Assembly: GCA_043821645.1 (NCBI GenBank)
Contig: JBDRCO010000070.1
Location: 1 to 64,000 of the forward strand
Reading direction: 5' to 3'
DNA length: 64,000 bases
Source: Pseudomonadota bacterium
GTDB taxonomy: Bacteria; Myxococcota; JACRCW01; JAFGSX01
Under the pieces are notes generated by a model. The model was not told the origin of the DNA. It saw only the letters and a list, made by a program, of their open reading frames with translations, and did no database searches. The position numbers were made by a program, and so were the translations under genes. Below, piece by piece: positions 8,111 to 58,408 of the stretch (position 1 is the stretch's first letter; each line of letters opens with the position of its first letter).

Positions 8111-8173
8111 GAGGCTTCTCCCGACCCGCGCAAGCTCCGAGGGCCTGCTGCAGGGGTGAATGCAGAGCGTGCT

Positions 8174-9817
8174 CTAGAGCGCCGCGTGCTGGCGACGGCC
8201 CTCGCGCATGCGCCAGCGCAGCAGGCCAAAGGCCACGAAGGCCAGGGGCAGGCCCACGATGTTGAAACCCTTGACCATGTTGCGGGTGCCGTCGCTGACC
8301 TCGTCGAGGGGGGCCGCAGCGAGGCCGCGCGCGCGCACCGCAAGCAGGGCGTCGTCGAGCACCATCCAGTCGAGCAGGTTGAGCATCAGGGCCTGGTTCC
8401 CCGGGGACATGAACTGGTCCAGCACGAAGGCGAAACCGCCGGCCACCAGGATGCGCGCGTCACCGGCCTGGGTCTTCGCCGTCGGGTCCACGGACATGCC
8501 GGTTTCTTCGGCCCCCTTGTGGAAGTAACTCTTCACCGGACCGCGCAGGGTGATCAACATGTCGCGTGGCGATGCCTGGCCCAGGGTGTCGCTGGTCCAG
8601 CGCTGCATGGGGTCCAGGTTGTAGGGCGGCGACTGCACCCAGCTCTCGGCGGAACTCTTGACCAGGATGTCGCCCTTGACCGCGCTGCCTTCGGGCAGGC
8701 TCAGGCTCAGGGGGGACATGAAGGCAAAGGACACCTGGGACAGACCCCGGGTCAGCGGGTGATCCGGGTCCAGGGCCTTGGGCACGGGCACGAAGGGGTA
8801 CTTGACCGGCTGTGCAATGCGCAGGAAGCCGCGCTGCTGCATCACCGACATGGTGGCGCACTCGGCGTCGAGGACCAGACCCGGATCGATCTTGACGCCG
8901 TAGCTCTCGAGCAGGGGCGCCAGGCCGCTGTCGATGGGATTGGCCTGCATGGTCTGCAGGTCAGGATCCACCGCCCCGAGCATGAAGGCCGCGGAGCGCC
9001 CTGACATGACGAACTGGTCGATGGCGCGTTGCTCGGCCTCGCTGAACGGGGTCTTGGGGCCGATGACCAGGATCGCATCGACGTCGTCACCTATGCTGGG
9101 AGTGCTGCTCAGGTCGAGGGTGGTGATGTCGTAGAGCTGACCCAGCAGACCGTAGATCTGACCCATTTCCTTCTGCACGTCGGGATTGTTGTGGCCCGTG
9201 ATGAGAGCGACCTTGGGCGCCTTGGCCCGGCTCACCTTGCGGATCATGGTCGTCAGGTCGTACTCGAGGCCCGCGGTGTCCTGCACCACAGGGATGACTT
9301 CCTTCTTGTCGCCGTGGCGGATGGCGATGCCCATGTAGGCGCGCTTGACCTCGATCTTGTCGTCCTCGTTGACGCGCACCTGCACCGGCGGGATGCCCAC
9401 GTTGCGCAGGTCGCGCTCGACGCTGGTCTCCTCGCGCACGGAGCGGCCAAAGATGTCCTGCTTGACCTCCTTCTTGGCCTCCTTGTCGGCCTCGGTCTCC
9501 TCGCTGAGGGGATCCACGAACTCGTAGCGCAGATTGCCCTTGCTCGCGGCGTAGTACTCCTCGAGCAGGTCCTTGACGTAGCGCGCGTTGGTCGAGTACG
9601 GCGGCGGCAAGTCGCGGCTGAAGTAAGCGGTGATGGTGACCGGGTCGCTCAGGTTCTTGACCAGGTCGCGGGTGGCCTGGCTCAGGGTGAACTCGCGATT
9701 GCGGGTCCAGTCGAGCCGGCCGAACAGGCCGACGCTGATGACGTTGAGCAACACCAGGCTGCCGATGATGGCGATCACCAGCACCGAGGTATCGAGGGTC
9801 TTCTTCTGGGTGGTCAT
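8174..9817 (-). CDS. GldG-family ABC transporter auxiliary/periplasmic component
   Basis: RLDWTRNREFTLSQAT, YEFVDP, LEYDLT, IDQFVMSG, NLLDWM; TM helices at both ends. Confidence 0.9.
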   Translation of the reverse strand: MTTQKKTLDTSVLVIAIIGSLVLLNVISVGLFGRLDWTRNREFTLSQATRDLVKNLSDPVTITAYFSRDLPPPYSTNARYVKDLLEEYYAASKGNLRYEFVDPLSEETEADKEAKKEVKQDIFGRSVREETSVERDLRNVGIPPVQVRVNEDDKIEVKRAYMGIAIRHGDKKEVIPVVQDTAGLEYDLTTMIRKVSRAKAPKVALITGHNNPDVQKEMGQIYGLLGQLYDITTLDLSSTPSIGDDVDAILVIGPKTPFSEAEQRAIDQFVMSGRSAAFMLGAVDPDLQTMQANPIDSGLAPLLESYGVKIDPGLVLDAECATMSVMQQRGFLRIAQPVKYPFVPVPKALDPDHPLTRGLSQVSFAFMSPLSLSLPEGSAVKGDILVKSSAESWVQSPPYNLDPMQRWTSDTLGQASPRDMLITLRGPVKSYFHKGAEETGMSVDPTAKTQAGDARILVAGGFAFVLDQFMSPGNQALMLNLLDWMVLDDALLAVRARGLAAAPLDEVSDGTRNMVKGFNIVGLPLAFVAFGLLRWRMREGRRQHAAL

Positions 9818-9853
9818 GCAGTCACCTCGTTCATTGCGTCGCTCGGCTCCGGC

Positions 9854-10573
9854 TCAGGCGTGCTGACGGGCCAGGGAGCGCTCGGCCAGGAACAGCGAAC
9901 CGCCGGCCAGGCTCAGGTAGTAAAGGACATCGCGGCTGTCGACGACGCCACGGGCCATGTTGTCCAGGTGCGAGCTGATGGACACGAACTCGAGCACCGG
10001 GGCGATGCCCTCGGGCACGAAGAACTGCAACCAGTACACGAAGTACAGCGCGGCGCCGACCAGGAAGGCGACGATGAAGGCCACGATCTGGTTGCTGGTG
10101 AAGGTGGAGCACAGCAGACCGATGGACAGCAGCGCCGAGGCGAACAGCACCAGGCCCAGGTAGCCGGACAGCACCGGGCCCCAGTCCAGGTTGCCGAGCG
10201 AGGCGACGGTGATGGCGTAGACCAGGGTGACGCCGAGGGCCGCACCGAGCAGGCCCAGGGCCGCCAGGAACTTGCCCACGATGACGTCGAAATCGCGCAG
10301 CGGCATGGTGGTGAGCAATTCGATGGTGCCGCTCCTGCGCTCCTCGGCGACCAGGCGCATGGTGACGGCGGGCGCCAGGATCACCAGCAGCATGGAGGGC
10401 GAGAAGGGCGAGGGCTGGAAGAAGGACCGCAGGTCGGCGCGACCGATGAGGAACATCGCGCTGAAGAACATCCAGCCCGCGACGAGCAAGAAGGCCACCA
10501 CCACGATGTAGGCGATGGGCGAATCGAAGTAGCTGCGCAGCTCGCGCCGCGCGATGACCAGCGCGTTACGCAT
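9854..10573 (-). CDS. ABC-2 type permease (GldF-like)
   Basis: RRELRSYFDSPIAY, TMRLVAEERRSGTIELLTT, GKFLA, GVVDSRDVLYY. Confidence 0.92.
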   Translation of the reverse strand: MRNALVIARRELRSYFDSPIAYIVVVAFLLVAGWMFFSAMFLIGRADLRSFFQPSPFSPSMLLVILAPAVTMRLVAEERRSGTIELLTTMPLRDFDVIVGKFLAALGLLGAALGVTLVYAITVASLGNLDWGPVLSGYLGLVLFASALLSIGLLCSTFTSNQIVAFIVAFLVGAALYFVYWLQFFVPEGIAPVLEFVSISSHLDNMARGVVDSRDVLYYLSLAGGSLFLAERSLARQHA

Positions 10574-11558
10574 GGGCGCCTCCCTCGCCGCGGGTCAAGC
10601 GGCGGAACGTGTCCTCGAGTGAGATGTGCTCGCGGTGCAGATCGAGAAGCACCAGGTCGTTTTCCACCGCGGCCCGGAACAGGCCCTCGCGCGGATCGTC
10701 CTTGCCCGCGGTCTGAACGCGGTAACCCAGGGTTCCTGCGCCCTCGCCCTCGTGGCTGGTGACGGTGCGCACGCCGGCCACCTTGCCAAGCACGGACTCG
10801 ACCTTGGCGGCGTCGATGGTGATGTCGTTCTTTGCCTTGAGCACGACCCGGATCACGGCACCGGTCTCGCGGGCAGCCAGCCCATCCGGGGTGTCGTCGG
10901 CGACCAGCTTGCCATCAGAGATGATCATGACGCGGTCACAGGTGGCCTGGACCTCGGGCAGGATGTGGGTCGACAGGATGACGGTCTTCTCGCGGCCAAG
11001 TTCCTTGATCAGCTCACGAATCTCGACGATCTGGTTGGGGTCAAGACCCGAGGTGGGCTCGTCGAGAATGACCAGGTCGGGGTCGTGCACCATGGCCTGT
11101 GCAAGACCCACGCGCTGGCGGAAGCCCTTGGACAGCTGCCCGATATCTTTACCCAGGACATTCATCAGGCCACAGCGCTCGGCGATGTCCTTGAGCCGGC
11201 GCGCCCGGATATCGAGGGGGATGTTGCGCATGTTGGCAACAAAGCGCAGGAAGTCCGCCACCATCATCTCGTTGTAGAGCGGCGCACTCTCGGGCAGGTA
11301 GCCGATGCGGCTGCGCGTGGCGATGGGGTCCGCTGCCACGTCCACACCACCGATCAGGGCCTGCCCGCTGGTCGGGCGCAGGAAACCGGTGAGGATGCGC
11401 ATGGTGGTGGTCTTGCCGGCCCCGTTGGGGCCCAAAAAGCCCACCACCTCGCCGCGGGAGATGTTGAAGGAGAGCTCGCTGAGCGCTCGCGTGGCGCCGT
11501 ACTGCTTGGACAGCGCGCGAGCCTCTATCATGCGTTCTGCTGAAGTGTCCGCCATCAT
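10566..11558 (-). CDS. ABC transporter ATP-binding protein (GldA-like)
   Basis: Walker A GPNGAGKTT, signature LSKGFRQRV, Walker B ILDEP, H-loop LSTH. Start moved to ATG 11558/11555 after GGAG. Confidence 0.95.
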   Translation of the reverse strand: MMADTSAERMIEARALSKQYGATRALSELSFNISRGEVVGFLGPNGAGKTTTMRILTGFLRPTSGQALIGGVDVAADPIATRSRIGYLPESAPLYNEMMVADFLRFVANMRNIPLDIRARRLKDIAERCGLMNVLGKDIGQLSKGFRQRVGLAQAMVHDPDLVILDEPTSGLDPNQIVEIRELIKELGREKTVILSTHILPEVQATCDRVMIISDGKLVADDTPDGLAARETGAVIRVVLKAKNDITIDAAKVESVLGKVAGVRTVTSHEGEGAGTLGYRVQTAGKDDPREGLFRAAVENDLVLLDLHREHISLEDTFRRLTRGEGGAHA

Positions 11559-11871
11559 CTTCTCCGTCAAGGGTGGCCAGATCCCGCGAGGGTTGAGTAC
11601 TTGGGATGGCCTGGGTCGTCCGCCAAACCAGAGGGACGCGGGCTTTATTCCGAAAACCAGCAAAAAGATCAAGGGGGGATGCGAGGGCGTGGGAGCTGCC
11701 CGGAGGGGCGCGTGCGGTCGGTATCAGGGGGATCAAGGGCACGGCTGTGCGCTTTCCTGCTCGACCCGAAAAAGAGCCACCAGAATGCATCGGTCATTCG
11801 TCGCATGACCCTGGGGTGCGAGTGTGTCCCACTTGAGCCTACACGTCCGTCAGCGTGCATGAGGAAAGACC

Positions 11872-14871
11872 ATGGAGCATCGCTGCAGCCTCAAGCTCTG
11901 CCCGGGCGTCGTCGCCCTGCTCGGCGTGCTCTCCTGCACACCAGGCTCGATCGCGCCCCCCTCCGAGGACGGCGGCGCCACGGTCGTGGTCGACGCGGCA
12001 GCCCTCGACGCCGTGGTCCGCGACAGCCTCCTCCGCGATTCCGCGCGCAGCGACACCGTGAGCCATGATCTCGCTGCGGGTGGCGACCGGCCTATGGGTA
12101 ATGACCAGGACAGCACCTGCCAGGAAGCCAGCCGACGCTGCGTCGGTCTGACGCCGGAGGTCTGCCAGAGCGACGGCACCTGGCGGGCCGAGGCCACCTG
12201 CGTCGAGGAATGCTACGGGGGCTGGTGCGCCATCGTCATCGAGGGCGGCGAGGCGTCCTCCGACGTCATCGAGCCCGCACGCAAGGTGATCGTGCGCGGC
12301 ACTCTTCGCGTCCCGCCAGAGTCGAACTCGGGGGCAAGTGGCCGGTTCCGGATCCAGGCGCGCGCCATCGTGGTCGAGGGCACCATCGACGCCCGGGGAA
12401 GTGGATCACCTGGCGGTGGTGGCGGCGGTGGCGGCGGCGGTGGCTGTCGCAACGCGGCGCACGGCGCACCCGGCACGGGGGGCAGCGGCACCAATGACGG
12501 GCAGCCTGGCCAGAGCGAGAATGCGTGTGGCGGCGACAAGTGGGGTGGCCCCGGGGGCCCTGGCGGCAATGGCGGGGGCGATCATGGTGGTGGCGGCGGC
12601 ACCGGCGGACCCTGCGTGGCCAGCTTCAACCAGGGTGGTTCGCCCGGCCAGGCCGGTGTCGCCGGAGGCTACGCCACGCCAGGCAGCAATGGCGACAGCA
12701 GCCTCGACGACACGGTGTGGCCTGGCTCGGGTGGTGGCGGCGGCGGCGGCGGCACCGGCGGTGGCAACGGCAATGGCGAAGGGGGTGGCGGCGGTGGTGG
12801 CGGCGGCGGCGGTGGTCGCGGCGGCGGATCGGTCGAACTGGTCAGTCACGACCTGCTGTGGATCCCCGGTCAGGTGTTCGCTGACGGCGAGCCCGGCGAG
12901 GATGGCGTGAGCGGCGGCGCGGCCGTGCGCGTCGCAGCGCAGGAAGGCGCGGGCGGCAATGGCGGCGCAGGCGGGAGCAGCGAGCCCGCACAGCAAGGCC
13001 TGGGAGGCAGCGGCGGCAGCTTCGAGGGAAACGGCACTCCGGGTGGGGACGGCGCCGGCGGCGGCGCGGGCGCGGGCGGTGGTGTGTTGCTGTCCTGCCC
13101 CACCCCCGGTGGCCTGTCGGTGACTGGCAGCGTCAGTGCCCTGGGCGCTGGCGACCAGAGCAGCAACGGCGGCACCATCAAGGTGCGCTTCTCGGGCGCC
13201 GAGCCCGTGGGGAACCTGCAGGCTGGCCGGGTGCACCTGCTCGAGGTGAGCGCGCCTGTCGACGCGGGGCAAGTGCCCGACTCGGCTGGACCCGATACCC
13301 GCGGCAGCGACGACGCCGCACACGCGGACGCAGCCGGGATAGACTCGGCCGTGCCCGACGCCGCGTTGCCCGATGTCGCGCAGCCAGACGCGTCGAGTTC
13401 CGATGCTGCCAGCGCCTGCACCCGCAACCCGATCGCGCGTTACGACACCGCCGAGATCGTGCTGCATGCGGCCCAGGACTACGACGCCACCCAGGGCGCT
13501 CCCAACCCCTTTGACATCGCGCTGAGCGCAACCGTCACGGCTCCGGACGGCCGCAGCTTCGAGGTGATGGGGTTCTTCGACGGCAACGGCCTTGGCGGTG
13601 CCGTCGGCGACGTGTTCAAGATCCGTGTCGCCCTGGATCAGGAGGGCCTCTGGAGCTGGATCAGCCACGCCAGCGAGGGGAGCCTCGACGGCCACAGCGG
13701 AAGCATTTGCTGCGCCGGCCTCCTGAGCGGAGTCTTTGGACGTGGCCCCCTGAAGGTCAACCCGGCCTACCCCCGCAGCTTCATGTACGCCGACGGAACG
13801 CCGGTCTACCTGGTGGGCAAGTTCCTCGACGTGGCCGCGCCCGATCCGATCAAGTTCTCCCACACCATGTTCTCGGAGAATCTGAGCGACACCAACCGCC
13901 AGGCCATGCTCGATCGCCACGTGGGCATGGGTCTGAACAAGATGAACGTGTACCTTGCCAACAAGGGCGACTATGGCAGCGTCTCGACCACCCCCTGGGT
14001 CGGCTCGGCTTCCTCCAACGACAAGAGCCGCTTCGACCTTGGCCGCTGGCACCGCTTCGAGCGCTGGACGCGAAGCCTGCGCGACGCCGGGCTCCTGGCC
14101 CAGCTGTGGTTCTTCGCCGATGACTCGGGCTTCGGCGATCTGCCCGACGCCCAGCGGCAGCGGCTGATCCGCTACGGCATGGCGAGGCTCTCGGCCTCCT
14201 CGAACACCTTCTTCACCCTCTGCCTGGAGTGGCAGGAGGGCTGGTCGGCAGCAGAGGTCAACGGTCACGCCAGTTATATGCAGCAGCACAACCCGTGGGG
14301 CCGCCTGATCAGCGTGCACGGCGTCACCGGCGACTTCAGCTACCCGGCGGCAGTCTGGGCGGACTACATGGACATCCAGTCTGGCAACGACGCCGACCAC
14401 GCCACGGTGCACAGCATGGGGGTGAGCAATCGCGGGCTGGCGGAGAAACCCCTGATCAACGAGGAGTTCGGCCTGGGCAACGAGGACACCGTGCACCGCC
14501 AGCGCGCCTGGGCTGCGTTCACCGCGGCGGGGGCGGGTTCGGGTACAGGCGCCTCGCTGCGCCACCTGGTTCACTTCACCCAGGCCGTGCCCTTTGAACG
14601 CATGGTACCCGCCGGTGTGCTGATCACCTCGGGGCAGGCCTACGCCATGGCCTGGCTAGGCCGTCACTACGTCTTCTACCTGCCTGACGGTGGCAGCGTG
14701 GGCGTGAATCTGAGCGGCCTGGGCGACATCTTCGCGGCGCGCTGGTACGACCCGCGCAATGGCACCTACAACGAGGCGGGGGAGGTGCGGGGCGGTGACG
14801 TGGTCAACCTGAGTGCGCCCGGCAGCGGGGACTGGGCGCTAGAACTCGTGTGGTCTCGAGCTGGAGACTGA
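11872..14871 (+). CDS. Modular lipoprotein: Gly-rich domain + DUF5060-like + glycoside-hydrolase-like barrel (apiosidase/DUF4038-like) + collagen-binding-like C-terminal domain
   Basis: Lipobox LLGVLSC; long GGx runs; NPFDIALSATVTAPDG...GFFDG; candidate catalytic Glu in LEWQE and PLINEEFG; C-terminal ARWYDPRNG...DWAL. Confidence 0.75.
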   Translation: MEHRCSLKLCPGVVALLGVLSCTPGSIAPPSEDGGATVVVDAAALDAVVRDSLLRDSARSDTVSHDLAAGGDRPMGNDQDSTCQEASRRCVGLTPEVCQSDGTWRAEATCVEECYGGWCAIVIEGGEASSDVIEPARKVIVRGTLRVPPESNSGASGRFRIQARAIVVEGTIDARGSGSPGGGGGGGGGGGCRNAAHGAPGTGGSGTNDGQPGQSENACGGDKWGGPGGPGGNGGGDHGGGGGTGGPCVASFNQGGSPGQAGVAGGYATPGSNGDSSLDDTVWPGSGGGGGGGGTGGGNGNGEGGGGGGGGGGGGRGGGSVELVSHDLLWIPGQVFADGEPGEDGVSGGAAVRVAAQEGAGGNGGAGGSSEPAQQGLGGSGGSFEGNGTPGGDGAGGGAGAGGGVLLSCPTPGGLSVTGSVSALGAGDQSSNGGTIKVRFSGAEPVGNLQAGRVHLLEVSAPVDAGQVPDSAGPDTRGSDDAAHADAAGIDSAVPDAALPDVAQPDASSSDAASACTRNPIARYDTAEIVLHAAQDYDATQGAPNPFDIALSATVTAPDGRSFEVMGFFDGNGLGGAVGDVFKIRVALDQEGLWSWISHASEGSLDGHSGSICCAGLLSGVFGRGPLKVNPAYPRSFMYADGTPVYLVGKFLDVAAPDPIKFSHTMFSENLSDTNRQAMLDRHVGMGLNKMNVYLANKGDYGSVSTTPWVGSASSNDKSRFDLGRWHRFERWTRSLRDAGLLAQLWFFADDSGFGDLPDAQRQRLIRYGMARLSASSNTFFTLCLEWQEGWSAAEVNGHASYMQQHNPWGRLISVHGVTGDFSYPAAVWADYMDIQSGNDADHATVHSMGVSNRGLAEKPLINEEFGLGNEDTVHRQRAWAAFTAAGAGSGTGASLRHLVHFTQAVPFERMVPAGVLITSGQAYAMAWLGRHYVFYLPDGGSVGVNLSGLGDIFAARWYDPRNGTYNEAGEVRGGDVVNLSAPGSGDWALELVWSRAGD

Positions 14872-39469: not shown

Positions 39470-40090
39470 ATGCAGCTCACACCGACGGGCGTTGGGTGGA
39501 TAGAGGTCATCTGCGGTTCCATGTTCTCGGGCAAGAGCGAGGAACTGATCCGCCGCCTGCGCCGCGCCCAGATCGCCCGCCAGCAGGTGCAGGCCTTCAA
39601 GGCCGCCATCGACGACCGCTTCGACGAGGAACACATCGTCTCGCACAGTGAGCAGCGCCTGCAATCGGTGCCCGTGCACAATTCCGATGAGATCGTCGAC
39701 CGCCTCGACCCCGGGGCGCAGGTGGTCGGCATCGACGAGGTGCAGTTTCTTGACCCGGGTGTGGTCGAGGTGTGCGAGATGCTGGCCAACCGCGGCGTCC
39801 GCGTCATCGTGGCGGGTCTCGATCAGGACTACCGGGGCAAGCCCTTCGAGCCCGTGCCCTCGCTGATGGCCGTGGCGGAGTACGTCACCAAGGTGCACGC
39901 CATCTGCGTGCGCTGCGGCAACCCCGCCAACCGCTCCCAGCGCGTGGTCCACAACGACGAGCGCGTGGTCGTCGGGGCTGCCGGGACCTACGAGGCACGT
40001 TGCCGTCGCTGCTTCACGGGTGCACCGCTTCGCCGACCGCAACCCGCGGCGGAGCCAGTGGACGAGTCTCCTCGAAAGGTGTCCGCATGA
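39470..40090 (+). CDS. tdk: Thymidine kinase
   Basis: GSMFSGKSEEL, IDEVQF, AGLDQD, Zn site CVRC...YEARCRRC. Confidence 0.97.
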   Translation: MQLTPTGVGWIEVICGSMFSGKSEELIRRLRRAQIARQQVQAFKAAIDDRFDEEHIVSHSEQRLQSVPVHNSDEIVDRLDPGAQVVGIDEVQFLDPGVVEVCEMLANRGVRVIVAGLDQDYRGKPFEPVPSLMAVAEYVTKVHAICVRCGNPANRSQRVVHNDERVVVGAAGTYEARCRRCFTGAPLRRPQPAAEPVDESPRKVSA

Positions 40091-40923
40091 GCGCCGAGCA
40101 CGGCCCTGGCCCCGTCGACAGCGCCTACGTCAGCGTGCGTCACCCCACGGCCGAGCTCGAGCACCGCTACGGGCGTAACTACCACATCCTGGCGGACCCC
40201 TTTTTGCTCTCGCACCTGGCGCGGCTGTGCACGCACGCGGTGGTGCAGCCCCTGCTCAACAACCTGGTGCGCGACCTGTACCGCTACATCATCAAGGCCA
40301 TCCTCAATGGCGAGTTCCCGCGCTGTCGCAAGAGCTTCGTCACCCGCATGATCGACAGCTCGCCCCTGGGTGTGTGGACTGGCGAGGTGATCGACCCGGA
40401 GACCCGGGCCGTGACCGTCAACATCGCCCGCGCCGGTACCTTGCCCTCGCAGGTGGTCTTCGACTTCCTGTGCACGACCATGAACCCCTTGATGGTGCGC
40501 CAGGATCACATCGTGATGGCGCGCGCCACGGCCGACGACGGGCACGTGACGGGCACCGACGTGCACGGCCTCAAGATCGGTGGACCGGTCGACAAGAGCA
40601 TCGTGATCTTCCCGGACCCCATGGGCGCCACCGGCGGTTCGCTGTCCTCGGCCATCGACATCTACAAGAAGAGCTACGGCACGGCTCTGAAGTACATCAC
40701 CGCCAATCTCATCGTGACGCCGGAGTACCTGCGCCGCATGCACGACCGCCACCCCGACGTCATCGTGTACGCCGTACGCCTGGACCGAGGCGCCAGCGCG
40801 CCGGAGGTGCTGGCCACGACGCCCGGGGAACGCTGGGATGAGGAGAGCGGCCTGACCAGCAAGCAGTACATCGTGCCGGGAGGCGGCGGCTTCGGTGAGA
40901 TCATGAACAACGCCTACGTCTAG
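40087..40923 (+). CDS. upp: Uracil phosphoribosyltransferase, atypical long form
   Basis: IARAG, PRPP loop IFPDPMGATGGS, YIVPGGGGFGE; ATGA overlap with tdk. Confidence 0.85.
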   Translation: MSAEHGPGPVDSAYVSVRHPTAELEHRYGRNYHILADPFLLSHLARLCTHAVVQPLLNNLVRDLYRYIIKAILNGEFPRCRKSFVTRMIDSSPLGVWTGEVIDPETRAVTVNIARAGTLPSQVVFDFLCTTMNPLMVRQDHIVMARATADDGHVTGTDVHGLKIGGPVDKSIVIFPDPMGATGGSLSSAIDIYKKSYGTALKYITANLIVTPEYLRRMHDRHPDVIVYAVRLDRGASAPEVLATTPGERWDEESGLTSKQYIVPGGGGFGEIMNNAYV

Positions 40924-40944
40924 GCAAGCCGAGGAGCACGCATC

Positions 40945-41469
<525 letters not shown>

Positions 41470-44555: not shown

Positions 44556-46321
44556 AGGCTCGCATCCCCACCCTCGTCGTCACTTCAGTGGTCCTGGTCC
44601 TGACCCCGGCCAGCGCCCAGGCCGTGAAGACCTTCATCAACTACAGCAACCAGACCGCGAACCGGGTCTGCGCTGGCGGTGTCGAATCGACCTACGCTGC
44701 GGACAACGCCGCGCGCCTGAAAACCCTGCTCGTCGGCTACGGCTTTGACGTGCGCACCAGCGATGACTTCTATGGTTCCAACGCAGCGGCAGCGTCCTGG
44801 GGCGCCACATCGTTTCTGTCCATCCACTCGAATGCGGGTGGGGGCCACGGCGCCGAGACGCTCAAGGGCTGGTACGGCAACAGCTCCGCCTTCGCGACCA
44901 AGGTGCAAGCTGGCCTGATGTCCAAGATCCCTTTCCAGAGCCGCGGGGTGAAGAGCGGCACCTGCGGCGGTGGTCGTTGCCGGGTGCTCAACTACAGCGG
45001 CCAGACCGCAGCCCTGGTCGAGGTGGTGTTTCACGATTGCTGTACCTCGAGTGGCTACACGGGACACCCACCTTCGGAGGCGGCCTACCTGGTCAGTAGC
45101 AGTGGTCGCCAGACCATCGCCTCGGGCTTGGCCAAGGGCCTGTGTGACTATCATGGCGTGTCCTGCACGGGCTCGACCCCGCCACCGTCCAGCTTGGGTT
45201 CGCTCAAGGGCGTGGTTTACAAAAACGGCGACCTCAACCAGCATGTCGCGCCTGCAACGATCAGGCTGAGCTCCGGCGCCACCACCAGCTACAACGGCAG
45301 CAGCGTGTGGAGCTTCGACGTCCCTGCGGGCAGCAGCTACACGATCACCGCCAGCGCCGCGGGCTTTCACACAGCCACCCGAAACTGCAACGCGGTCACC
45401 GCGGGATCCATCACCTATTGCAGCATCGAGCTGGAAGCCGAGGCTCCCGCCACCAGCACAGGATTCATCAAGGGAACGGTGTACAAGAACGGCGACACCA
45501 CGGATCGCGTGGTGCCGGCGACGCTCACCCTCAGCACCGGCGCCACAGCCAGCTACACCGATGCTGGCGCGCTGTGGTCCTTCGAGGTGCCGGTGAGCGG
45601 CAGCTACGCGATGACGGCCGGCGCAGCCGGTTACGATACCGTGACCAGGAGCTGCGGGGCGGTGACGGCGGGCGCCACCACCTGGTGCAGTGTGGAGCTG
45701 GTGCCCACCGCCGCGCCCAGCAATGGTGTGCTCCAGGGTATCGTCTATCGGGACGGCAACCAGGCCAGCGTGGTCGCGCCGGCCACCGTGACGCTCAATA
45801 CCGGTTCGACTACCACCTACAACGGCATGGACGCCTGGTCCTTCACCCTGTCCCCGGCGAGCTACACCGTGACGGTCGCGGCCGACGGCTTCGCGACGCG
45901 CAGCAACGTGGCCTGTCCGATGGTGCCGGCCGGCGGTCGCGTGCAGTGTGACGTGGAGTTGCAGCCCCTGGCCGTGCCCGATGCGGGCCATGCTCAGGAC
46001 GACGCAGGCGAGGTGGAAAGCGACGCAGGCAGTGTCGGCGGCGATGCCAGCAGCGCGGACACCGGGGAGAGCACCGACGTCGGCGGCGGAGACGCGGGCA
46101 GCGATACAGCCATCGGCGGGGATGACGCGAACAGGCCGTCGGTGAGTGCCGATGTCGTCGAGCTGGGGGACGGCTTTGGCTGTGCGGCGGGTCCGGGGCG
46201 GGCGCCGGTGTGGCTCGCCCTGCCCGCTCTGCTTCTCGGCCTGGTCTGGCGGCGCCGAACCCATGCACCGGGTGCGCGGGCAGTGCTCTCGGGCGACCCG
46301 GGCCGCCCCCCTCGGCCCTGA
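44552..46321 (+). CDS. N-acetylmuramoyl-L-alanine amidase (Amidase_3-like) with three beta-sandwich repeats and MYXO-CTERM anchor
   Basis: Signal peptide; FLSIHSNA, GHGAE, SRGVK, ALVEVVFHD; three GxxxGxVY...WSF repeats; C-terminal GFGCAA...LALPALLLGLVWRRR; ATGA overlap with the upstream gene. Confidence 0.85.
   Translation: MKARIPTLVVTSVVLVLTPASAQAVKTFINYSNQTANRVCAGGVESTYAADNAARLKTLLVGYGFDVRTSDDFYGSNAAAASWGATSFLSIHSNAGGGHGAETLKGWYGNSSAFATKVQAGLMSKIPFQSRGVKSGTCGGGRCRVLNYSGQTAALVEVVFHDCCTSSGYTGHPPSEAAYLVSSSGRQTIASGLAKGLCDYHGVSCTGSTPPPSSLGSLKGVVYKNGDLNQHVAPATIRLSSGATTSYNGSSVWSFDVPAGSSYTITASAAGFHTATRNCNAVTAGSITYCSIELEAEAPATSTGFIKGTVYKNGDTTDRVVPATLTLSTGATASYTDAGALWSFEVPVSGSYAMTAGAAGYDTVTRSCGAVTAGATTWCSVELVPTAAPSNGVLQGIVYRDGNQASVVAPATVTLNTGSTTTYNGMDAWSFTLSPASYTVTVAADGFATRSNVACPMVPAGGRVQCDVELQPLAVPDAGHAQDDAGEVESDAGSVGGDASSADTGESTDVGGGDAGSDTAIGGDDANRPSVSADVVELGDGFGCAAGPGRAPVWLALPALLLGLVWRRRTHAPGARAVLSGDPGRPPRP
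45197..45964 (+). repeat. Three tandem ~85-aa carboxypeptidase-regulatory-like beta-sandwich repeats, coding
   Basis: Units begin GSLKGVVYKNGD, GFIKGTVYKNGD, GVLQGIVYRDGN; each has WSF, A.G[FY] and a Cys pair before EL. Confidence 0.85.
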
Positions 46322-46597
46322 CGGACGACGTACCAGTCAGCACGTGCGGTCCGTTGATGGCCGCACCACATGCCTTGCCCCCGTCGTCACCTCTTGCTAG
46401 CGTGCTCGCGCCGACCTGCCACAATCCACGCGCCGGCACGCCCTGACGGCTCGGGCCACTCGGCGGCAGGAGGCAAGACAGAGCCTCGACGGCGCCCCTG
46501 GCCGTCCACAGCGACATCGATATGCCCACGGGATGACCCGCGTGCATCGATGCAGCCATTCTCCAAACCGGCCGCGTGGAGCCACGAGGAGAAGCCC

Positions 46598-48001
46598 ATG
46601 TCCCCCAAGCGACGAGTTCTGATCCTGGGAGCCGCTGGCCGCGACTTCCACAACTTCAACTGCGTCTTCCGCGACGACCCGGACCACGAGGTGGTGGCCT
46701 TCACCGCGGCCCAGATCCCCGACATCGACGACCGCAAGTACCCGGCCGCCCTGGCCGGTCCCTACTACCCGAACGGCATACCCATCGTGGCCGAGGAGGA
46801 AGCGCCTGCCCTGATCCGCAAGTACAAAATCGACGAGGTGGTGTTCTCGTACTCCGACGTGACCTACCAGCACGTGATGAGCCTGTCGTCGGTGGCCATC
46901 GCCAATGGCGCAGACTTCCGGCTGATCGGCCCCGCCAAGACCATGATCCCGTCGAGCAAGCCCGTGGTCTCGATCTGCGCGGTGCGCACCGGCTGCGGCA
47001 AGAGCCAGACTACCCGGCGCGTGGCTGAACTGCTCAAGGAGCGTGGCAAGAAACTTGTCGCGGTGCGCCACCCCATGCCCTACGGCGACCTCGCCAAGCA
47101 GAAGGTGCAGCGCTACGCCAAGCGCCAGGATCTGATCAAGCATCGCTGCACCATCGAGGAGATCGAGGAGTACGAGCCCCACATCGCCGCAGGCACCATC
47201 ATCTACGCCGGTGTCGATTACGAGGCCATCCTGCGCCAGGCCGAGCAAGAAGCCGATGTGGTGCTATGGGACGGCGGCAACAACGACCTGCCCTTCTACA
47301 AGAGCGACCTCGAGATCGTCGTCACCGATCCCCTGCGCGCGGGAAATGAGCTCAGCTACTACCCGGGCGAGGCCAACCTGCGCCGCGCCGACGTGGTCAT
47401 CATCAACAAGATCGACACCGCGCCGGCCGACGCCATCGAGACCGTGCGCGCCAACATTCGTGCCGTCAATCCCGACGCGGTGATCATCGACGCAGCCTCG
47501 CCGGTGATGGTGGACAACCCCAAGGCCGTACGCGGCAAGCGCGTGCTGGTGGTCGAGGATGGTCCGACCCTGACCCACGGAGAGATGAAGTTCGGTGCCG
47601 GCGTCATCGCCGCTCTGCATTACGGAGCGGCCGAGTTCGTGGATCCGCGCCCTTTTACCAAGGGCAGCATCGCCGCGACTTTCGAGAAGTACCCCGAGAC
47701 CGGAACCCTGCTCCCTGCCATGGGCTATGGCGACGAGCAGATGAAAGATCTCAAGGACACCATCGATGCCTGTGACTGTGACCTGGTCATCATCGGCACC
47801 CCCATCGACCTGACGCGCTACGTCTCTTTCAATAAGCCCAGCGTGCGCGTGCGCTACGACCTGCAGGAGATCGGCTCACCGACCCTGGTCGACGTCATCG
47901 ATGAGTTTCTGACCAAGCACGGCAAGCGCGCTGCCAAGGGCGGCAAGAAGGCGGCCACAAAGGCCGCGAAGAAGTCCCCGGCCAAGCGGGGCAAGCGCTA
48001 G
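46598..48001 (+). CDS. arcE: COG2403 P-loop enzyme, probable arginine synthetase (often annotated cyclic 2,3-diphosphoglycerate synthetase-like or GTPase)
   Basis: ILGAAGRDFHNFN, VVAFTAAQIP, YPNGIPI, P-loop AVRTGCGKSQ, RHPMPYG, WDGGNND, VEDGPTLTHG, PAMGY; argF starts 9 nt after its stop. Start at ATG 46598 after GAGGAG. Confidence 0.82.
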   Translation: MSPKRRVLILGAAGRDFHNFNCVFRDDPDHEVVAFTAAQIPDIDDRKYPAALAGPYYPNGIPIVAEEEAPALIRKYKIDEVVFSYSDVTYQHVMSLSSVAIANGADFRLIGPAKTMIPSSKPVVSICAVRTGCGKSQTTRRVAELLKERGKKLVAVRHPMPYGDLAKQKVQRYAKRQDLIKHRCTIEEIEEYEPHIAAGTIIYAGVDYEAILRQAEQEADVVLWDGGNNDLPFYKSDLEIVVTDPLRAGNELSYYPGEANLRRADVVIINKIDTAPADAIETVRANIRAVNPDAVIIDAASPVMVDNPKAVRGKRVLVVEDGPTLTHGEMKFGAGVIAALHYGAAEFVDPRPFTKGSIAATFEKYPETGTLLPAMGYGDEQMKDLKDTIDACDCDLVIIGTPIDLTRYVSFNKPSVRVRYDLQEIGSPTLVDVIDEFLTKHGKRAAKGGKKAATKAAKKSPAKRGKR

Positions 48002-48010
48002 GAGGAACCC

Positions 48011-48949
48011 ATGACCCGACATCTCTGTTCCGACGCCGACCTCTCGGCGGCGGACTACCTTCGCGTGCTCGACCTGGCCCAGCAGGTCAAGCGCCACCCC
48101 GAGCTGTACCGCGATGCGCTGCGCGGGCGCTCCATCGCCGTGATCTTCAGCAAGCAGTCCACCCGCACCCGGGTCTCCTTCGAGGTGGGCATTCACCAGC
48201 TCGGTGCACAGCCCCTGGTGCTGACCGCCGGTGGTTCCACGGGCATGCAGATGGGGCGCGGCGAGAGCACCCACGACACGGCCAAGGTCATGTCGCGCTT
48301 CGTCGACGCCATCGTGATCCGTACCTTCGCCCAGCAGGAAGTCGACGACCTGGCCAGGTACGGCACGGTGCCCGTGGTCAATGCCCTGACCGACGCCTAC
48401 CACCCTTGCCAGGCCCTGGCCGACATGCAGACCCTGCGCGAGCGTTTCGGGGACACCCGCGGCCTCAAGCTGGTCTACGTGGGCGCGGGCAACAACGTGG
48501 CGCACTCGCTGATGCTGGCGGGGCCCCGCGCTGGCGTCGACGTGGTGGTGGCCAGTCCCGAGAGCGTGCCCCCGGACGCGCGCATCCTCAAGCGGGCCCA
48601 GGCCGACGCCAAGGCAGCCGGCACCCAGGTCAGCGTCGAGAAAGATCCCCTCAAGGCCGTCAAGAACGCCCACGCCGTGTACACCGACACCTGGGTGAGC
48701 ATGGGCCAGGACGCCGAGGCGGAGGCCCTGCGCAAGAAGCTTCAGCGCTACCAGGTCAACCCGGCGCTCATGGACAGGGCGCGACCCGACGCGATCTTCC
48801 TGCACTGCCTGCCCGCCCACCGCGGCGAGGAGGTGGTGGACGAGGTCATGGACGGCCGCTGGTCCGCGGTCTTTGACCAGGCTGAGAACAGGCTGCACGC
48901 TCAGAAGGCCCTGCTGCTGCTGCTGCTCGGCGCGGCGTCCTGGAGCTGA
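48011..48949 (+). CDS. argF: Ornithine carbamoyltransferase
   Basis: STRTRVSFE, HPCQ, NNVA, YTDTWVSMG (SMG loop), FLHCLP, QAENR. Confidence 0.96.
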   Translation: MTRHLCSDADLSAADYLRVLDLAQQVKRHPELYRDALRGRSIAVIFSKQSTRTRVSFEVGIHQLGAQPLVLTAGGSTGMQMGRGESTHDTAKVMSRFVDAIVIRTFAQQEVDDLARYGTVPVVNALTDAYHPCQALADMQTLRERFGDTRGLKLVYVGAGNNVAHSLMLAGPRAGVDVVVASPESVPPDARILKRAQADAKAAGTQVSVEKDPLKAVKNAHAVYTDTWVSMGQDAEAEALRKKLQRYQVNPALMDRARPDAIFLHCLPAHRGEEVVDEVMDGRWSAVFDQAENRLHAQKALLLLLLGAASWS

Positions 48950-48982
48950 GCGTGAACCTGCTCGCACGGCCACCTACCGGCA

Positions 48983-49681
48983 TCACTGCAGGGCGTCGAG
49001 CCTCCTGAACAACCACTCGTACAGACCGTATTGCAGCACCGAGCCTTGGATCAGGCGGCCACTGCGCACGATCATGTCCGGCGTCAGGACCGCGGACAGC
49101 AGGGCCAGCACCTGCACCAGCTCCGGGGGAATGAGCCAGTTACCATCCGTGGCCCCCGTCGCAGCGCCCAGCGTCGAGGCAAAGGCTTCGATCACGATCG
49201 TGACCAGGGTGATGGCGAGGACCATGTACTGGATGCCCAGGGAGAACTTGGTCAGGGGCAGGGGATGCAGCCCGAATCTGTCGAGCAGCAGAAACTTTGC
49301 CGACGAGGGCAGGAAGCCGAGCAGCGGGTACCAGGGAAGGACCAGCCAGCGCAGGCCCTGCGTGGCCCGGTAGTTCCGTATCATCGCATCCCTGGCCTCG
49401 ACGAAGCTCGCGTCGTACTCGTAGACTCGCCCGGGGAGCGCGATCTTGTCGTCGGCCGTCAGAGGTCTGAGCCAGTACAGGACCCCACCGTGCTGCGCCT
49501 CCACCGCGTCAATGGTGTAGTCGATGCCCTGGTAACGCACCCATGTCTTGCGGTAGGTCGTGGGCTGCCACTCCTGCATCTCATGGCGCGACAGGATCTG
49601 GAGACCGTCCGGTCGCAGGGTGACGACGTCAGATCCCACGCGAACGGGCTCGCTGCCCTGGTCCTCGCCCCGCTCGTTCAT
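48983..49681 (-). CDS. Hypothetical membrane protein
   Basis: Soluble N-terminal domain followed by about 3 hydrophobic segments; start moved to ATG 49681 (track extension overlaps the methyltransferase). Confidence 0.7.
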   Translation of the reverse strand: MNERGEDQGSEPVRVGSDVVTLRPDGLQILSRHEMQEWQPTTYRKTWVRYQGIDYTIDAVEAQHGGVLYWLRPLTADDKIALPGRVYEYDASFVEARDAMIRNYRATQGLRWLVLPWYPLLGFLPSSAKFLLLDRFGLHPLPLTKFSLGIQYMVLAITLVTIVIEAFASTLGAATGATDGNWLIPPELVQVLALLSAVLTPDMIVRSGRLIQGSVLQYGLYEWLFRRLDALQ

Positions 49682-52815: not shown

Positions 52816-54306
52816 TCAGCCCTTGACCACGTCGAGGACCTGCGAAGCCATCTGCAACATCGCCGAGGGCAACATGCCGGTGAGCAAGATCAGCAGGGCC
52901 GCGAGGGCCAGACCGACCGCCAGGAAAGCGCCGCCGCGCCCGTCGAGCTTGGGATGCGGCTCTTTCATGTACATGAAGACCAGCACCCGCAGATAGTAAT
53001 AGACGCTCACCAGGCTGTTGAGGATGCCGATGAAGGCGAGCCAGTACAGCTTGGCGTCGACCACGTTGTAGAACAGGTTGAACTTCGCCAAAAACCCCGC
53101 CGTGGGAGGGATCCCCGCGAGCGAGAACATGAAGACGGTCATGGCCAGACCGATCAAGGGGTAGCGGCGTGCCGCCCCGGACCACTCGTCAAAGGTCGCG
53201 CCCTTGCCATCTTCGCGTTCGAGGAAAGCCACCACGCCGAAGGAGCCCACGGTCATCAGGGCATAGGCCATCAGGTAAAAGCCCACCGCGCCCAGCGCCT
53301 CCTGGTGTCCCGCCACCGCCGCCACCACACCCGCCAGTGCATAGCCGGCATGCGCGATGGACGAGTAGGCAAGCAGGCGCTTGATGCGCTTCTGCGCCAG
53401 GGCGGCCAGGTTGCCCACGCTCATGGTGGCCACGGCCACGATCCAGCCCAGGGTGATCCAGCTCTCGCTGCCCGCCCCCGCGCCAGGTCCAAGACCCGCG
53501 ATGACGACCCGGATCAGGGCCGCGAAGGCTGCAGCCTTGACCCCGGCTGCCATGAAGGCCGTGGCCGGAGCCGGCGCACCGTCGTAAACGTCTGGCGTCC
53601 ACATGTGCAGCGGCACGGCCGCGATCTTGAAGCCGAGGCCGAGCACCACCATGGCGAAGCCAGCGACCACCAGCGGCTGGTTGGCGACGGCGCCGCCCCG
53701 CAGCATGGGGCCAATGGCCTGGATGCTGGTCACACCGCTGGCGCCGTACAGCAGCGCCATGCCGAACAGCAGGATCGCTGCCGCAAAGGCACCGTTGAGG
53801 AAGTACTTGAGCGCAGCCTCGGGGCTGCGGCTGTTGTCGCGATCCAGTCCCGTGAGCACGTACACGCCCACCGACATGGTCTCGAGAGCGACGAACAGGA
53901 ACAGGAAGTCTGCGGCCTGGGCCAGGGCCACCATGCCCGCGGAGGCGAAGGCGATGATGGCGTAGTACTCGCCGCGCTCGATGTCGCGGGCGCGCAGCCA
54001 GGCCACCGCGACCATCACCGCCAGTGCGGCGCCGACACAGATGACCGCGCCGAAGAACAGTCCAAAGCGATCCACCCTCAGCGCACCGTGAAACACGCTG
54101 TGCGGCGCGCCGGTGCCAGAGAACTGCACCAGCATCCATGCCCCGGCGGCGAGCAAGCCGAGCACGGTCAGGATGGCGATGTGACCCCGCGGCGTCGTCT
54201 TGCGCGCGCCCACCGGGACCCCGGCAACCTCAAGCATCAGTGCCAGACAGCCGGTCAGGGTCAAGATCACCAGAGGCCCGATGGCCGTGACTTCCTGGAC
54301 GCTCAT
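52816..54306 (-). CDS. nuoN: NADH-quinone oxidoreductase subunit N
   Basis: GEYY, LETMS, EAALKYF, FKIAAVPLHMWTPDVYDGAP, KRLLAYSSIAHAGY, LAGIPPTAGF. Confidence 0.96.
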   Translation of the reverse strand: MSVQEVTAIGPLVILTLTGCLALMLEVAGVPVGARKTTPRGHIAILTVLGLLAAGAWMLVQFSGTGAPHSVFHGALRVDRFGLFFGAVICVGAALAVMVAVAWLRARDIERGEYYAIIAFASAGMVALAQAADFLFLFVALETMSVGVYVLTGLDRDNSRSPEAALKYFLNGAFAAAILLFGMALLYGASGVTSIQAIGPMLRGGAVANQPLVVAGFAMVVLGLGFKIAAVPLHMWTPDVYDGAPAPATAFMAAGVKAAAFAALIRVVIAGLGPGAGAGSESWITLGWIVAVATMSVGNLAALAQKRIKRLLAYSSIAHAGYALAGVVAAVAGHQEALGAVGFYLMAYALMTVGSFGVVAFLEREDGKGATFDEWSGAARRYPLIGLAMTVFMFSLAGIPPTAGFLAKFNLFYNVVDAKLYWLAFIGILNSLVSVYYYLRVLVFMYMKEPHPKLDGRGGAFLAVGLALAALLILLTGMLPSAMLQMASQVLDVVKG

Positions 54307-56189
54307 GGCTGCACCCCCTTGACGGGAGGAGACTTGAGTTTGTTCTTGGTACGCAGCGCAGCCTCCGGCGGTGTGGCCCCAGGGCCGGTGCGCACAGCCT
54401 GTGGTCGCTGATCCCGGGCGGTGGCCTGAACGCCAGCCGTCGTCGGATCGAGATGCGCGCGCTCGGCCTGCTCCCGCGGCGCGGGCAGAGGCTTCCCGCG
54501 GGCCTCGTCGAGGGTACGCGGAATCGTCCCGAAGGGACGCAGCGGCTTGATCACCGGCATGTCTCCCTTGCGACGGCCCGGATCGACCGGCCTGGCAGCC
54601 CCGGCCACAGCCGCGGGAGCCTGGTGCTGGGCGTCAGCCCGGTGCATGTGGGAGCGCAGTTGCACATCGGCCACGGCAGCCTGCACCGAAGGCTCGATGC
54701 GCTGCAGGAACCAGCCCGGCACCACACCCATGACCACGGCGAGCACGACCAGCGGTGCGAACACCACGCCCTCGCGCAGGGTCATGTCCTTGAGGTCCTG
54801 GTTGAGCGGGTTGCTCAGGGGACCGAAGAACACGCGCCGGAACATCCACAGCAGATAGACCGCAGCCAGGATTACGCCCGAGGCACCGATGAGCGCGAGC
54901 CAGCGGCCCGAACCGGGACCGAGGGTGGTGACGTCGAAGGTCGTCGATCCAAAGGTGCCGATGAGGATGAGGAACTCACCCACGAAGCCATTGAGGCCGG
55001 GCAGACCGATGGACGACAGAGAGATCAGCAGGAACACCGTCGCGATGATGGGGATCACGCGCGCCACGCCGCCGAACTCCGAGATCAGGCGGGTATGACG
55101 GCGCTCGTACAGCACGCCGACCAGGAGGAACAGCGCGCCCGTCGAGATGCCGTGGTTGAGCATCTGGTACACGGCGCCGGTGATGGCCTTGGTCTCGAGG
55201 GCGGCGATACCCAGCATGACGAAGCCAAGGTGACTGATGGACGTGTACGCCACCAGGGCCTTGATGTCCTTCTGCACCATGGCGACGAGAGCGCCATAGA
55301 TGATGCCGATGAGCGCCAGGATGGCGATGGGCGGGATGAACCAGTAGCTGGCCTCGGGGAAGATCGGGATGGCGAAGCGCAGGAACCCATAGGTCCCCAT
55401 CTTGAGCAGCACACCAGCCAGGATCACGGAGCCCGCGGTCGGGGCTTGCACATGGGCCAGCGGCAACCAGGTGTGGAAGGGGAACATCGGGACCTTGATG
55501 GCGAAGCTCAGCGCGAAGGCCGCAAACAGGAGCAACTCGGTGCCGATGGGATACGGCGCACGCTGCACGGCCTCGATGAGCACGGGCAGGTCGAAGGTGC
55601 GCTCACCCACGACGGGAGCCGTGCTGTAGATGTAGAGCAGCGCGAACAGCATCATCAAGGAGCCGACCATGGTGTAGACGAAGAACTTGAGCGCGGCGTA
55701 GACCCGGTCCTGGTAGCCCCAGATGCCGATGAGGAAGTACATCGGGATGAGCATGATCTCCCAGAACAGGTAGAACAGCAGCAGGTCGAGGGACACCAGG
55801 GCGCCTAGCATGCCGGTCTCGAGCAGCAGCATGCAGATGACGAATTCCTTGACGCGATGCTGGATGCTGTTCATGGAGCCAAGCAGGGCAATGGGCGTGA
55901 GCAGCGTCGAGAGCAGCAGCAGGAACACGCTGATGCCGTCGACACCGATGTGGTAGCCCGCGCCGATGCTGGGGATCCAGCGGTGCCGCTCGACCAGCTG
56001 CATGCTGCCCTGGCTGCCGTCGAACCAGTACAGGATCGCCAGCGACAGCACGAACACCAGGGTGCTCCAGCCTATGGCGAAGCTCTTGAGCGATCCACGC
56101 TCGGCGCGCGGGAACAGCAGCAAAAAGAGCGCGCCGATGAGGGGCGTGAAGACCACCAGGCTCAGGATGTTGTTCTGCAAGAAGGTCAT
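54303..56189 (-). CDS. nuoM: NADH-quinone oxidoreductase subunit M with long C-terminal extension
   Basis: GVDGIS, FWEIMLIPMY, KVPMFPFHTWLP, LLKMGTYG, GLPGLNGFVGE. Start at ATG 56189 after GGAGG. Confidence 0.96.
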   Translation of the reverse strand: MTFLQNNILSLVVFTPLIGALFLLLFPRAERGSLKSFAIGWSTLVFVLSLAILYWFDGSQGSMQLVERHRWIPSIGAGYHIGVDGISVFLLLLSTLLTPIALLGSMNSIQHRVKEFVICMLLLETGMLGALVSLDLLLFYLFWEIMLIPMYFLIGIWGYQDRVYAALKFFVYTMVGSLMMLFALLYIYSTAPVVGERTFDLPVLIEAVQRAPYPIGTELLLFAAFALSFAIKVPMFPFHTWLPLAHVQAPTAGSVILAGVLLKMGTYGFLRFAIPIFPEASYWFIPPIAILALIGIIYGALVAMVQKDIKALVAYTSISHLGFVMLGIAALETKAITGAVYQMLNHGISTGALFLLVGVLYERRHTRLISEFGGVARVIPIIATVFLLISLSSIGLPGLNGFVGEFLILIGTFGSTTFDVTTLGPGSGRWLALIGASGVILAAVYLLWMFRRVFFGPLSNPLNQDLKDMTLREGVVFAPLVVLAVVMGVVPGWFLQRIEPSVQAAVADVQLRSHMHRADAQHQAPAAVAGAARPVDPGRRKGDMPVIKPLRPFGTIPRTLDEARGKPLPAPREQAERAHLDPTTAGVQATARDQRPQAVRTGPGATPPEAALRTKNKLKSPPVKGVQP

Positions 56190-56221
56190 CGTCAGCCTCC
56201 CGGTGTTGCCGGGGTAAAGAA

Positions 56222-58288
<2,067 letters not shown>

Positions 58289-58408
58289 CGCGAAGTCCTC
58301 GTTGCTGCCGCAAGGAACCGTTGAACATCCTGTCGACGGGAACACCGAACTCCGGCGACCGTCGCTCGACCGCGCCCCCCGGCTGCCGGGGAACGCGGAT
58401 CCGGGGCC

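Follow-up and report, generated by a model that had tools for sequence, protein, structure and literature searches.

What does an arginine synthetase-type protein do for a bacterium in which its gene stands directly in front of one for an ornithine carbamoyltransferase (OTC)? The question is raised by contig JBDRCO010000070.1 of assembly GCA_043821645.1 (G000 hereafter), from a bacterium of apparently Myxococcota type, in which an arcE-type gene and an OTC gene follow each other at positions 46598-48949 of the window, i.e. the whole stretch of 64,000 nucleotides analysed here. A sequence-only reading of this locus had left two roles open: a two-step route from ornithine to arginine that bypasses ArgG and ArgH, or an ATP-conserving catabolism of arginine. 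The second role fits the data, because a carbamate kinase is present in the genome and co-occurs with ArcE in relatives; the first is disfavoured, as argB, argC and proA were not found. We consider it likely that the arcE-OTC operon degrades arginine with a gain of ATP, and that it probably also supplies carbamoyl phosphate and ornithine to the cell.

The arcE-OTC pair and its predicted pathway

The pair and its internal features are as follows.

46586..46591, + strand: GAGGAG, probable ribosome-binding site of arcE as predicted from the sequence, with the ATG at 46598 lying 6 nt downstream
46598..48001, + strand: arcE-type gene for a putative arginine synthetase (COG2403-like P-loop protein of 467 aa, P0003), assigned by homology and a structure model
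46985..47005, + strand: P-loop (Walker A-like) RTGCGKS, residues 130-136, from alignments A1 and A2
47267..47287, + strand: WDGGNND motif characteristic of the ArcE clade, residues 224-230, from alignments A1 and A2
47918..47998, + strand: Lys/Ala/Arg-rich C-terminal tail of ArcE, residues 441-467 (27 residues), KRAAKGGKKAATKAAKKSPAKRGKR, outside the conserved enzyme
48000..48005, + strand: AGGAGG, ribosome-binding site for OTC, in overlap with the stop codon of arcE; the junction reads TAGGAGGAACCCATG
48011..48949, + strand: OTC gene of the arcB/argF type, 312 aa (P0002), from TIGR00658, NF001986 and Pfam domains

P0003 aligns over its full length with homologues from Caldithrix abyssi (67% identity over 434 residues) and Hyperthermus butylicus (47% identity and 429 bits, with one gap, over 441 residues). 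Homologues of arcE are widespread in bacteria, with Caldithrix among the many genera named, and also occur in Desulfurococcales, e.g. Hyperthermus and Pyrodictium (PMC11032458; this paper, PMC13260591 and PMC7460792 are cited here from parts of their text). Because of this full-length similarity to proteins from genera named there, the earlier assignment of P0003 to the ArcE (arginine synthetase) family holds at the level of sequence. The four motifs quoted at the time, GAAGRDFHNFN (residues 11-21), AVRTGCGKS (128-136), DGGNND (225-230) and EDGPTLTHG (320-328), are all present and fall in conserved family columns of alignments A1 and A2. Within the P-loop, R130, T131, G132, G134 and K135 are invariant in A2, and G134 and K135 are nearly invariant in A1.

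All 8000 scored candidates of a homologue search were significant, the top 120 being 66-87% identical to P0003, and from a set of 50% representatives HMMER retrieved 3879 proteins with E no higher than 0.001, of which 683 had E no higher than 1e-30. The closest named homologues come from Myxococcota or Myxococcales metagenome-assembled genomes, and a search started from a crenarchaeal member led to the named Hyperthermus, Pyrodictium and Ignisphaera proteins. In a quick tree of 41 rows, built without a cyclic 2,3-diphosphoglycerate (cDPG) synthetase outgroup and without locus L091, in which no open reading frame (ORF) was found, P0003 groups with its 87%-identical homologue (Shimodaira-Hasegawa-like approximate likelihood ratio test, SH-aLRT, 97). 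Next to it are G001, a relative of the same family, and P0005, with two sequences labelled Myxococcota alongside; P0003 lies within a mostly bacterial clade that stands apart from the crenarchaeal clade (support 99).

The product of the downstream gene, P0002, scores 381.4 bits on TIGR00658 (cut-off 280.85) and 405.8 bits on NF001986 (cut-off 306) and matches both Pfam domains, PF02729 and PF00185. Its translation contains STRTR, HPCQ, DTWVSMG and HCLPAHRGEE; we take STRTR, HPCQ, DTWVSMG and HCLP to be the substrate-binding and catalytic motifs of an OTC. This is the only OTC found in the assembly; two extra carbamoyltransferase matches turned out to be pyrB and a YgeW-type gene, not second OTCs. 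The short intergenic gap described earlier was confirmed, with 9 nt between the arcE stop codon TAG (47999-48001) and the OTC start codon (ATG, 48011). The OTC ribosome-binding site shares nucleotides with that stop codon, which suggests that translation of the two genes is coupled.

From these gene identities we infer the following activities and direction of flux. ArcE would convert arginine, ADP and phosphate to citrulline, ATP and ammonia, and OTC would then turn citrulline plus phosphate into ornithine and carbamoyl phosphate. The carbamoyl phosphate could yield a second ATP via a carbamate kinase encoded elsewhere, or could enter pyrimidine synthesis via aspartate carbamoyltransferase (PyrB), while ornithine would pass through ornithine aminotransferase to proline or glutamate. 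The arginine itself would probably be taken up from outside, e.g. from prey or peptides, and carbamoyl phosphate and ornithine would come mainly or solely from this operon. The scheme shares with the arginine deiminase (ArcA-ArcB-ArcC) pathway the course from arginine via citrulline to ornithine and carbamoyl phosphate and on to ATP, including the same OTC and carbamate kinase steps. In contrast to that pathway, the first step here would be taken by an unrelated P-loop enzyme, which should save a further ATP instead of hydrolysing its substrate. No ArcA was found in the genome: the arginine deiminase family PF02274 gave one match (24.8 bits), a dimethylargininase-like gene on another contig (L018, G000:C105:3000-7000, 1233-2075) whose 280-aa product reached 226 bits against a cut-off of 340.

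We examined the gene content of G000 as a whole (7.07 Mb in 140 contigs, 94.72% complete, 3.95% contamination; the contigs cited here have 66.7-67.6% G+C). As the sequence-only reading had reported, argG, argH, arcA and carbamate kinase are missing from the window, and for argG and argH this extends to the assembly. A family search and tblastn with the ArgG of two relatives gave no argG match in the assembly, and argH was not found there either, the best match (69.9 bits, on C136) being a class II fumarase/aspartase-type gene. Further searches of the assembly found neither argB nor argC, no ornithine cyclodeaminase and no proA (at most 24 bits). For carB, the family search of the assembly gave at most 54 bits, and tblastn with the CarB of two relatives matched only a 25%-identical ATP-grasp stretch. 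G000 does encode one carbamate kinase (G000:C87:199760-200686, 370 bits versus a cut-off of 358), so that the genes for ArcE, ArcB (OTC) and ArcC (carbamate kinase) are all present in the genome. It also encodes an ornithine aminotransferase (544 bits) and a cluster of purF, a dihydroorotase-like gene, an orotidine 5'-monophosphate (OMP) decarboxylase-like gene, pyrB (359 bits), pyrI, pyrD and pyrK, in which the dihydroorotase-like, OMP-decarboxylase-like and pyrI matches fall under their curated cut-offs.

The presence of carbamate kinase had been named beforehand as a pointer to catabolism. Missing argG and argH had been named as a pointer to biosynthesis; they are indeed not found, but the biosynthetic reading is disfavoured, as argB, argC and proA were not found either. 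The earlier reading had also proposed a search for carAB, the outcome of which it had not anticipated: the pyr genes are present but no carB was found, which points to a role of the operon in carbamoyl-phosphate supply, with arginine as the probable source. Since no proA was found, ornithine is probably also the source of proline, and since genes for arginine synthesis, carbamoyl-phosphate synthetase (CPS) and ProA were all not found, the organism would need external arginine.

This gene content resembles that of Thermococcus kodakarensis, in which the ArcE pathway was described with TK2200 (PMC11032458, PMC13260591). By its named homologues, P0003 belongs to the same protein family; the partners OTC and carbamate kinase are present in both organisms, both genomes lack argG, argH and CPS with the pyrimidine synthesis genes kept, and in both ornithine can feed proline synthesis, as it does in T. 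kodakarensis when formed from arginine (PMC11032458). Deletion of arcE or arcB in T. kodakarensis leads to pyrimidine auxotrophy, deletion of arcC has little effect, and CPS is found in only eight of 42 Thermococcales (PMC13260591). The present host differs in being mesophilic and high-GC, with a genome of ∼7 Mb and complex I genes in the window. In addition, arcE and the OTC gene form one operon here, whereas the locus numbers TK2200 and TK0871 are distant; the carbamate kinase gene lies in a YgeY/SelD-type cluster, and ArcE carries a basic C-terminal tail.

ArcE, CarB and PyrB in relatives and across the phylum

To our sample of relatives (41 genomes, i.e. G000 and 40 others) G000 contributes one of the 13 genomes in which ArcE is complete, the others being G001, G002, G005, G009, G015, G018, G024, G031, G033, G037, G038 and G040. 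The G033 gene is split across two contigs, and G038 holds two copies. Some ArcE matches in the relatives carry one to three stop codons, with tblastn alignments that are unbroken over 421-435 residues. Carbamate kinase was found in 11 of the 13 ArcE genomes versus two of the 28 others. CarB is missing from seven of the 41 genomes; six of these hold both ArcE and PyrB, and the seventh (G011) has neither. The gene order is also kept: OTC adjoins ArcE in eight of nine loci of relatives, three of which are ordered ArcE-carbamate kinase-OTC. The ninth locus is one of the two G038 copies, the other of which has a carbamate kinase gene directly behind it, and among relatives of family f8 the genes for carbamate kinase and ArcE are linked.

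Two further genomes, G023 and G026, have ArcE in fragments. What is left of the G023 gene (G023:C146:9553-10473) is three fragments that include a stop codon; ArgG, ArgH, ArgC, CarB and carbamate kinase are all found in that genome, and its ArcE looks like a decaying copy.

The same association was seen in a phylum-wide sample of 201 genomes, each at least 90% complete. ArcE is present in 35 of them, including all 17 of family f4, all three of f8 and both of f21, and carbamate kinase accompanies it in 31 of the 35 when matches with E no higher than 1e-40 are counted (22 score above the curated cut-off). CarB is missing from 25 genomes, five of which were identified by exclusion, with family labels that fit the tallies; the 14 control genomes all have CarB. 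PyrB is kept in 15 of the 25 (one PyrB is cut by a contig end), and 13 of these 15, from families f1, f4, f8 and f27, have ArcE. ArcE is found in none of the 10 genomes without both CarB and PyrB, nine of which are small genomes of family f10. With regard to ArgG, ArcE occurs in 21 of 39 genomes without it versus 14 of 162 genomes with it (the CarB and ArgG tallies include G166, in which both were found and ArcE was not; no conclusion rests on this genome). ArcE and the loss of ArgG are thus clearly linked in this phylum sample, unlike the general statement that ArcE occurrence is unrelated to argG/argH (PMC13260591).

A different gap was seen in family f7, in which G008 and G017 have CarB and gave no PyrB match. 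Such CarB without PyrB is also on record for Bradymonabacteria genomes (PMC7460792), and arginine is not mentioned in the part of that paper cited here.

CPS is close to universal in free-living bacteria, and its absence from a genome is usually taken to mean auxotrophy for pyrimidines and arginine. We give about even chances to a wider proposal, namely that the arcE-OTC pair took over from CPS in at least four families, so that external arginine would be the sole source of carbamoyl phosphate for pyrimidines, and here also of ornithine and proline; the loss of carAB, argBCGH and proA would have become tolerable only through this pair. If so, arginine would be an obligatory nucleotide building block in free-living bacteria of 5-7 Mb, a dependence so far shown only for Thermococcus. 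Should ArcE and OTC supply carbamoyl phosphate, metabolic reconstructions of such predator-like or peptide-feeding bacteria would err twice: pyrimidine synthesis would still be within their reach, and arginine would be needed far beyond protein synthesis. An enzyme studied only in a hyperthermophilic archaeon would also gain a mesophilic setting, in a bacterium that probably respires. The ArcE enzyme family and its wide spread in bacteria are already in print (PMC11032458). Our search of the literature on arginine synthetase and ArcE found no paper treating a bacterial enzyme, and Myxococcota-type names occur neither in the main text of PMC11032458 nor in the text of one supplementary file, the distribution trees being figures. 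New here are the host lineage and the recurrence in bacteria of what is seen in Thermococcales, with CPS lost and ArcE-OTC kept.

Several observations weigh against a catabolic operon that supplies carbamoyl phosphate. With 140 contigs and ∼95% completeness, the absence of genes from G000 is not proven. In two genomes of the phylum sample, G058 and G116, PyrB is kept and neither CarB nor ArcE was detected, perhaps owing to gaps in the assemblies, as other members of their families have CarB. Related genomes are not independent, and the counts describe a pattern over roughly four lineages, the 13 supporting genomes belonging to four families, rather than a statistical test. Membership of the ArcE family rests on the named intermediates from Caldithrix and Hyperthermus, not on TK2200 directly. 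Furthermore, the dimethylargininase-like gene could also yield citrulline, from methylated arginine or from arginine, and pyrimidine salvage is a possible alternative to synthesis: a hypoxanthine phosphoribosyltransferase gene (198 bits) and a weak uracil-phosphoribosyltransferase-like ORF at window positions 39772-41469, ∼5 kb upstream of arcE, suggest that nucleotide salvage is encoded in the window as well.

The carbamate kinase gene is another such point, since it is not linked to arcE and OTC here but lies on a separate contig (locus L014, G000:C87:192000-206000). At 2828-12836 of this locus it belongs to a same-strand run with genes for a YgeY-family M20 hydrolase, a pyridoxal phosphate (PLP)-dependent 'threonine synthase-like' enzyme and a protein with an FGE-sulfatase domain. 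With selD and a gene for an FAD subunit of xanthine-dehydrogenase type on its flanks, the run looks like a selenium-linked catabolic cluster of the ygeW/ygeY/yqeA type. The genome also encodes a knotted carbamoyltransferase of the YgeW type (656 bits), whose gene comes immediately after that of a sigma-54-dependent regulator (L016, G000:C5:30000-46000, 7069-10087); it is a possible second source or sink of carbamoyl phosphate in a genome in which no CPS was found. Because of these YgeY, PLP-enzyme and SelD surroundings and the YgeW carbamoyltransferase in the genome, the carbamate kinase may belong mainly to another pathway, or may additionally serve one that yields carbamoyl phosphate.

Finally, ArcE loci outside the phylum often lack the expected partners. 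A scan with a five-sequence alignment gave 595 loci, 80 of which were kept; they come from many phyla, none of them being from Thermococcales, and many are short. A clear OTC gene was found in six of the 80, a weak carbamoyltransferase-like gene in 10 and carbamate kinase in 12, so that most of these diverse loci have no OTC or carbamate kinase in the stretch covered. Eight Bacteroidales-type loci (L046, L062, L064, L065, L084, L092, L096 and L112) carry a divergent carbamoyltransferase gene ∼100-150 nt after ArcE, the product of which is 25-30% identical to the window OTC (74-107 bits); in L070 and L073 a divergent carbamoyltransferase gene lies ∼5 kb from ArcE. The link of ArcE to OTC and carbamate kinase is common, not general.

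Alternative roles of the operon and of the P-loop protein

Ornithine aminotransferase is a reversible enzyme, which, like the failure to find argG and argH in the assembly, would suit an operon that runs synthetically, with OTC making citrulline and ArcE making arginine in place of ArgG/ArgH, either de novo or by salvage of external ornithine or citrulline. In addition, carbamate kinase could in principle make carbamoyl phosphate (PMC13260591), and the arginine synthetase reaction can run either way (K about 10 at 80 °C) and supports growth of T. kodakarensis on citrulline (PMC11032458). With a reaction so near equilibrium the direction would be set by supply, and apart from arginine nothing here evidently supplies ornithine or citrulline. 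We therefore regard the synthetic direction as unlikely: argB, argC and proA are missing, so that no source of ornithine was found, and carB was not found either. The relatives argue in the same sense. ArgG is missing from 10 of the 13 ArcE genomes, and the same 10 lack ArgH and ArgC; a genome that has kept ArgC and lost ArgG, which would be the signature of biosynthetic replacement, does not occur among the 41. ArcE tracks carbamate kinase, a catabolic marker, and the Ks of TK2200p for ammonia is in the millimolar range (PMC11032458), which also speaks against synthesis.

An enzyme of the ArcE family could instead act on another guanidino or ureido substrate, or on another nucleotide, in which case its position next to OTC would stem from a reaction akin to, yet distinct from, that of arginine synthetase. 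The lack of a bacterial enzyme in the arginine synthetase literature leaves room for this, as do an identity of only 43-47% between P0003 and the crenarchaeal clade and the many ArcE loci of other phyla without OTC or carbamate kinase nearby. However, the family is strongly conserved (57-67% identity between members of different phyla and even of different domains), the downstream and apparently coupled OTC has as its substrate exactly what ArcE produces, and the ArcE-OTC adjacency or ArcE-carbamate kinase-OTC order is kept in relatives. We consider a different substrate quite improbable, and more so than the synthetic direction.

Database names suggest a third identity. Pfam and NCBIfam hold no specific model for P0003, the matches being of the cobW/HypB type in Pfam (22.3 bits) and to hypB in NCBIfam (17 bits), and a protein atlas has only generic 'GTPase' and 'cDPG synthetase' clusters. 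In source records, close homologues are listed either as 'predicted GTPase' or as 'cyclic 2,3-diphosphoglycerate synthase', in line with an earlier warning about mis-annotation; an ArcE assignment would correct this frequent error. The structure model of P0003, made from 19 sequences, has a predicted local distance difference test (pLDDT) score of 91.3 and a predicted template-modelling (pTM) score of 0.89. Its best fold matches in the PDB are the cDPG synthetase structures 8ork and 8oru (14-15% identity, template-modelling (TM) score 0.39-0.42, root-mean-square deviation ∼16 Å); together with 9sxb, these represent the Methanothermus fervidus enzyme, the nearest solved fold, with which P0003 would share a distant P-loop ancestry. 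The third-ranked match is LpxK (4EHY; E 2.2e-8, TM score 0.65 by target, 13% identity), a structure that was also superimposed on TK2200p by its authors (PMC11032458). LpxK has a similar nucleotide-binding core but is a lipid kinase of ∼310 residues without the N- and C-terminal domains. In the model, P0003 folds as a P-loop NTPase whose nucleotide pocket resembles that of LpxK, as for TK2200p.

To our knowledge, cDPG occurs only in a few hyperthermophilic methanogens. That P0003 is a cDPG synthetase or GTPase, as many records say, is very improbable despite these names, the top-ranked cDPG synthetase folds and the weak cobW/HypB-type match: similarity to 9sxb amounts to 35 bits (E 5.9e-8) in two short stretches versus 429 bits to an ArcE-clade protein, the fold match is distant, the solved cDPG synthetase sequence differs at the place aligned with WDGGNND, the aligned-site motifs, substrate and gene context differ, and the operon partner is an OTC. 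This sets the protein apart from cDPG synthetases, as the sequence-only reading had expected, on the basis of scores and fold identity and with a tree that lacks a cDPG synthetase outgroup.

Start site, C-terminal tail and surroundings of the operon

The G+C content of the window is ∼67% throughout, and a longer ORF reading of arcE extends from 46370 to 48001 on the + strand. Position 46370 is unlikely to be the real start, and the ATG at 46598 is the more likely one, because it is preceded by GAGGAG and because homologues begin at the same MS(K)KRRV..GAAGRDFHNFN. At its other end, the basic tail of ArcE is missing from most homologues, with a shorter basic version in the closest homologue, P0004; in the structure model of P0003 the last three 10-residue blocks have mean pLDDT values of 63, 52 and 46.

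The gene downstream of OTC lies on the opposite strand and is convergent, and the gene upstream of arcE encodes an amidase-type protein; because of these neighbours, the unit comprises the two genes. A promoter scan of 46200-49300 gave no promoter-like site, and a terminator scan of the same stretch gave two terminator-like sites, both on the wrong strand and no more than expected by chance. An Rfam scan of 45800-49400 gave nothing at E up to 1.

Further downstream, three genes for antiporter-like subunits of complex I or Mrp (Proton_antipo_M) lie in a row at 52816-58345 on the - strand. Because of these complex I antiporter-like subunits the organism probably respires, and in a respiring host the supply of carbamoyl phosphate and ornithine may outweigh the extra ATP.

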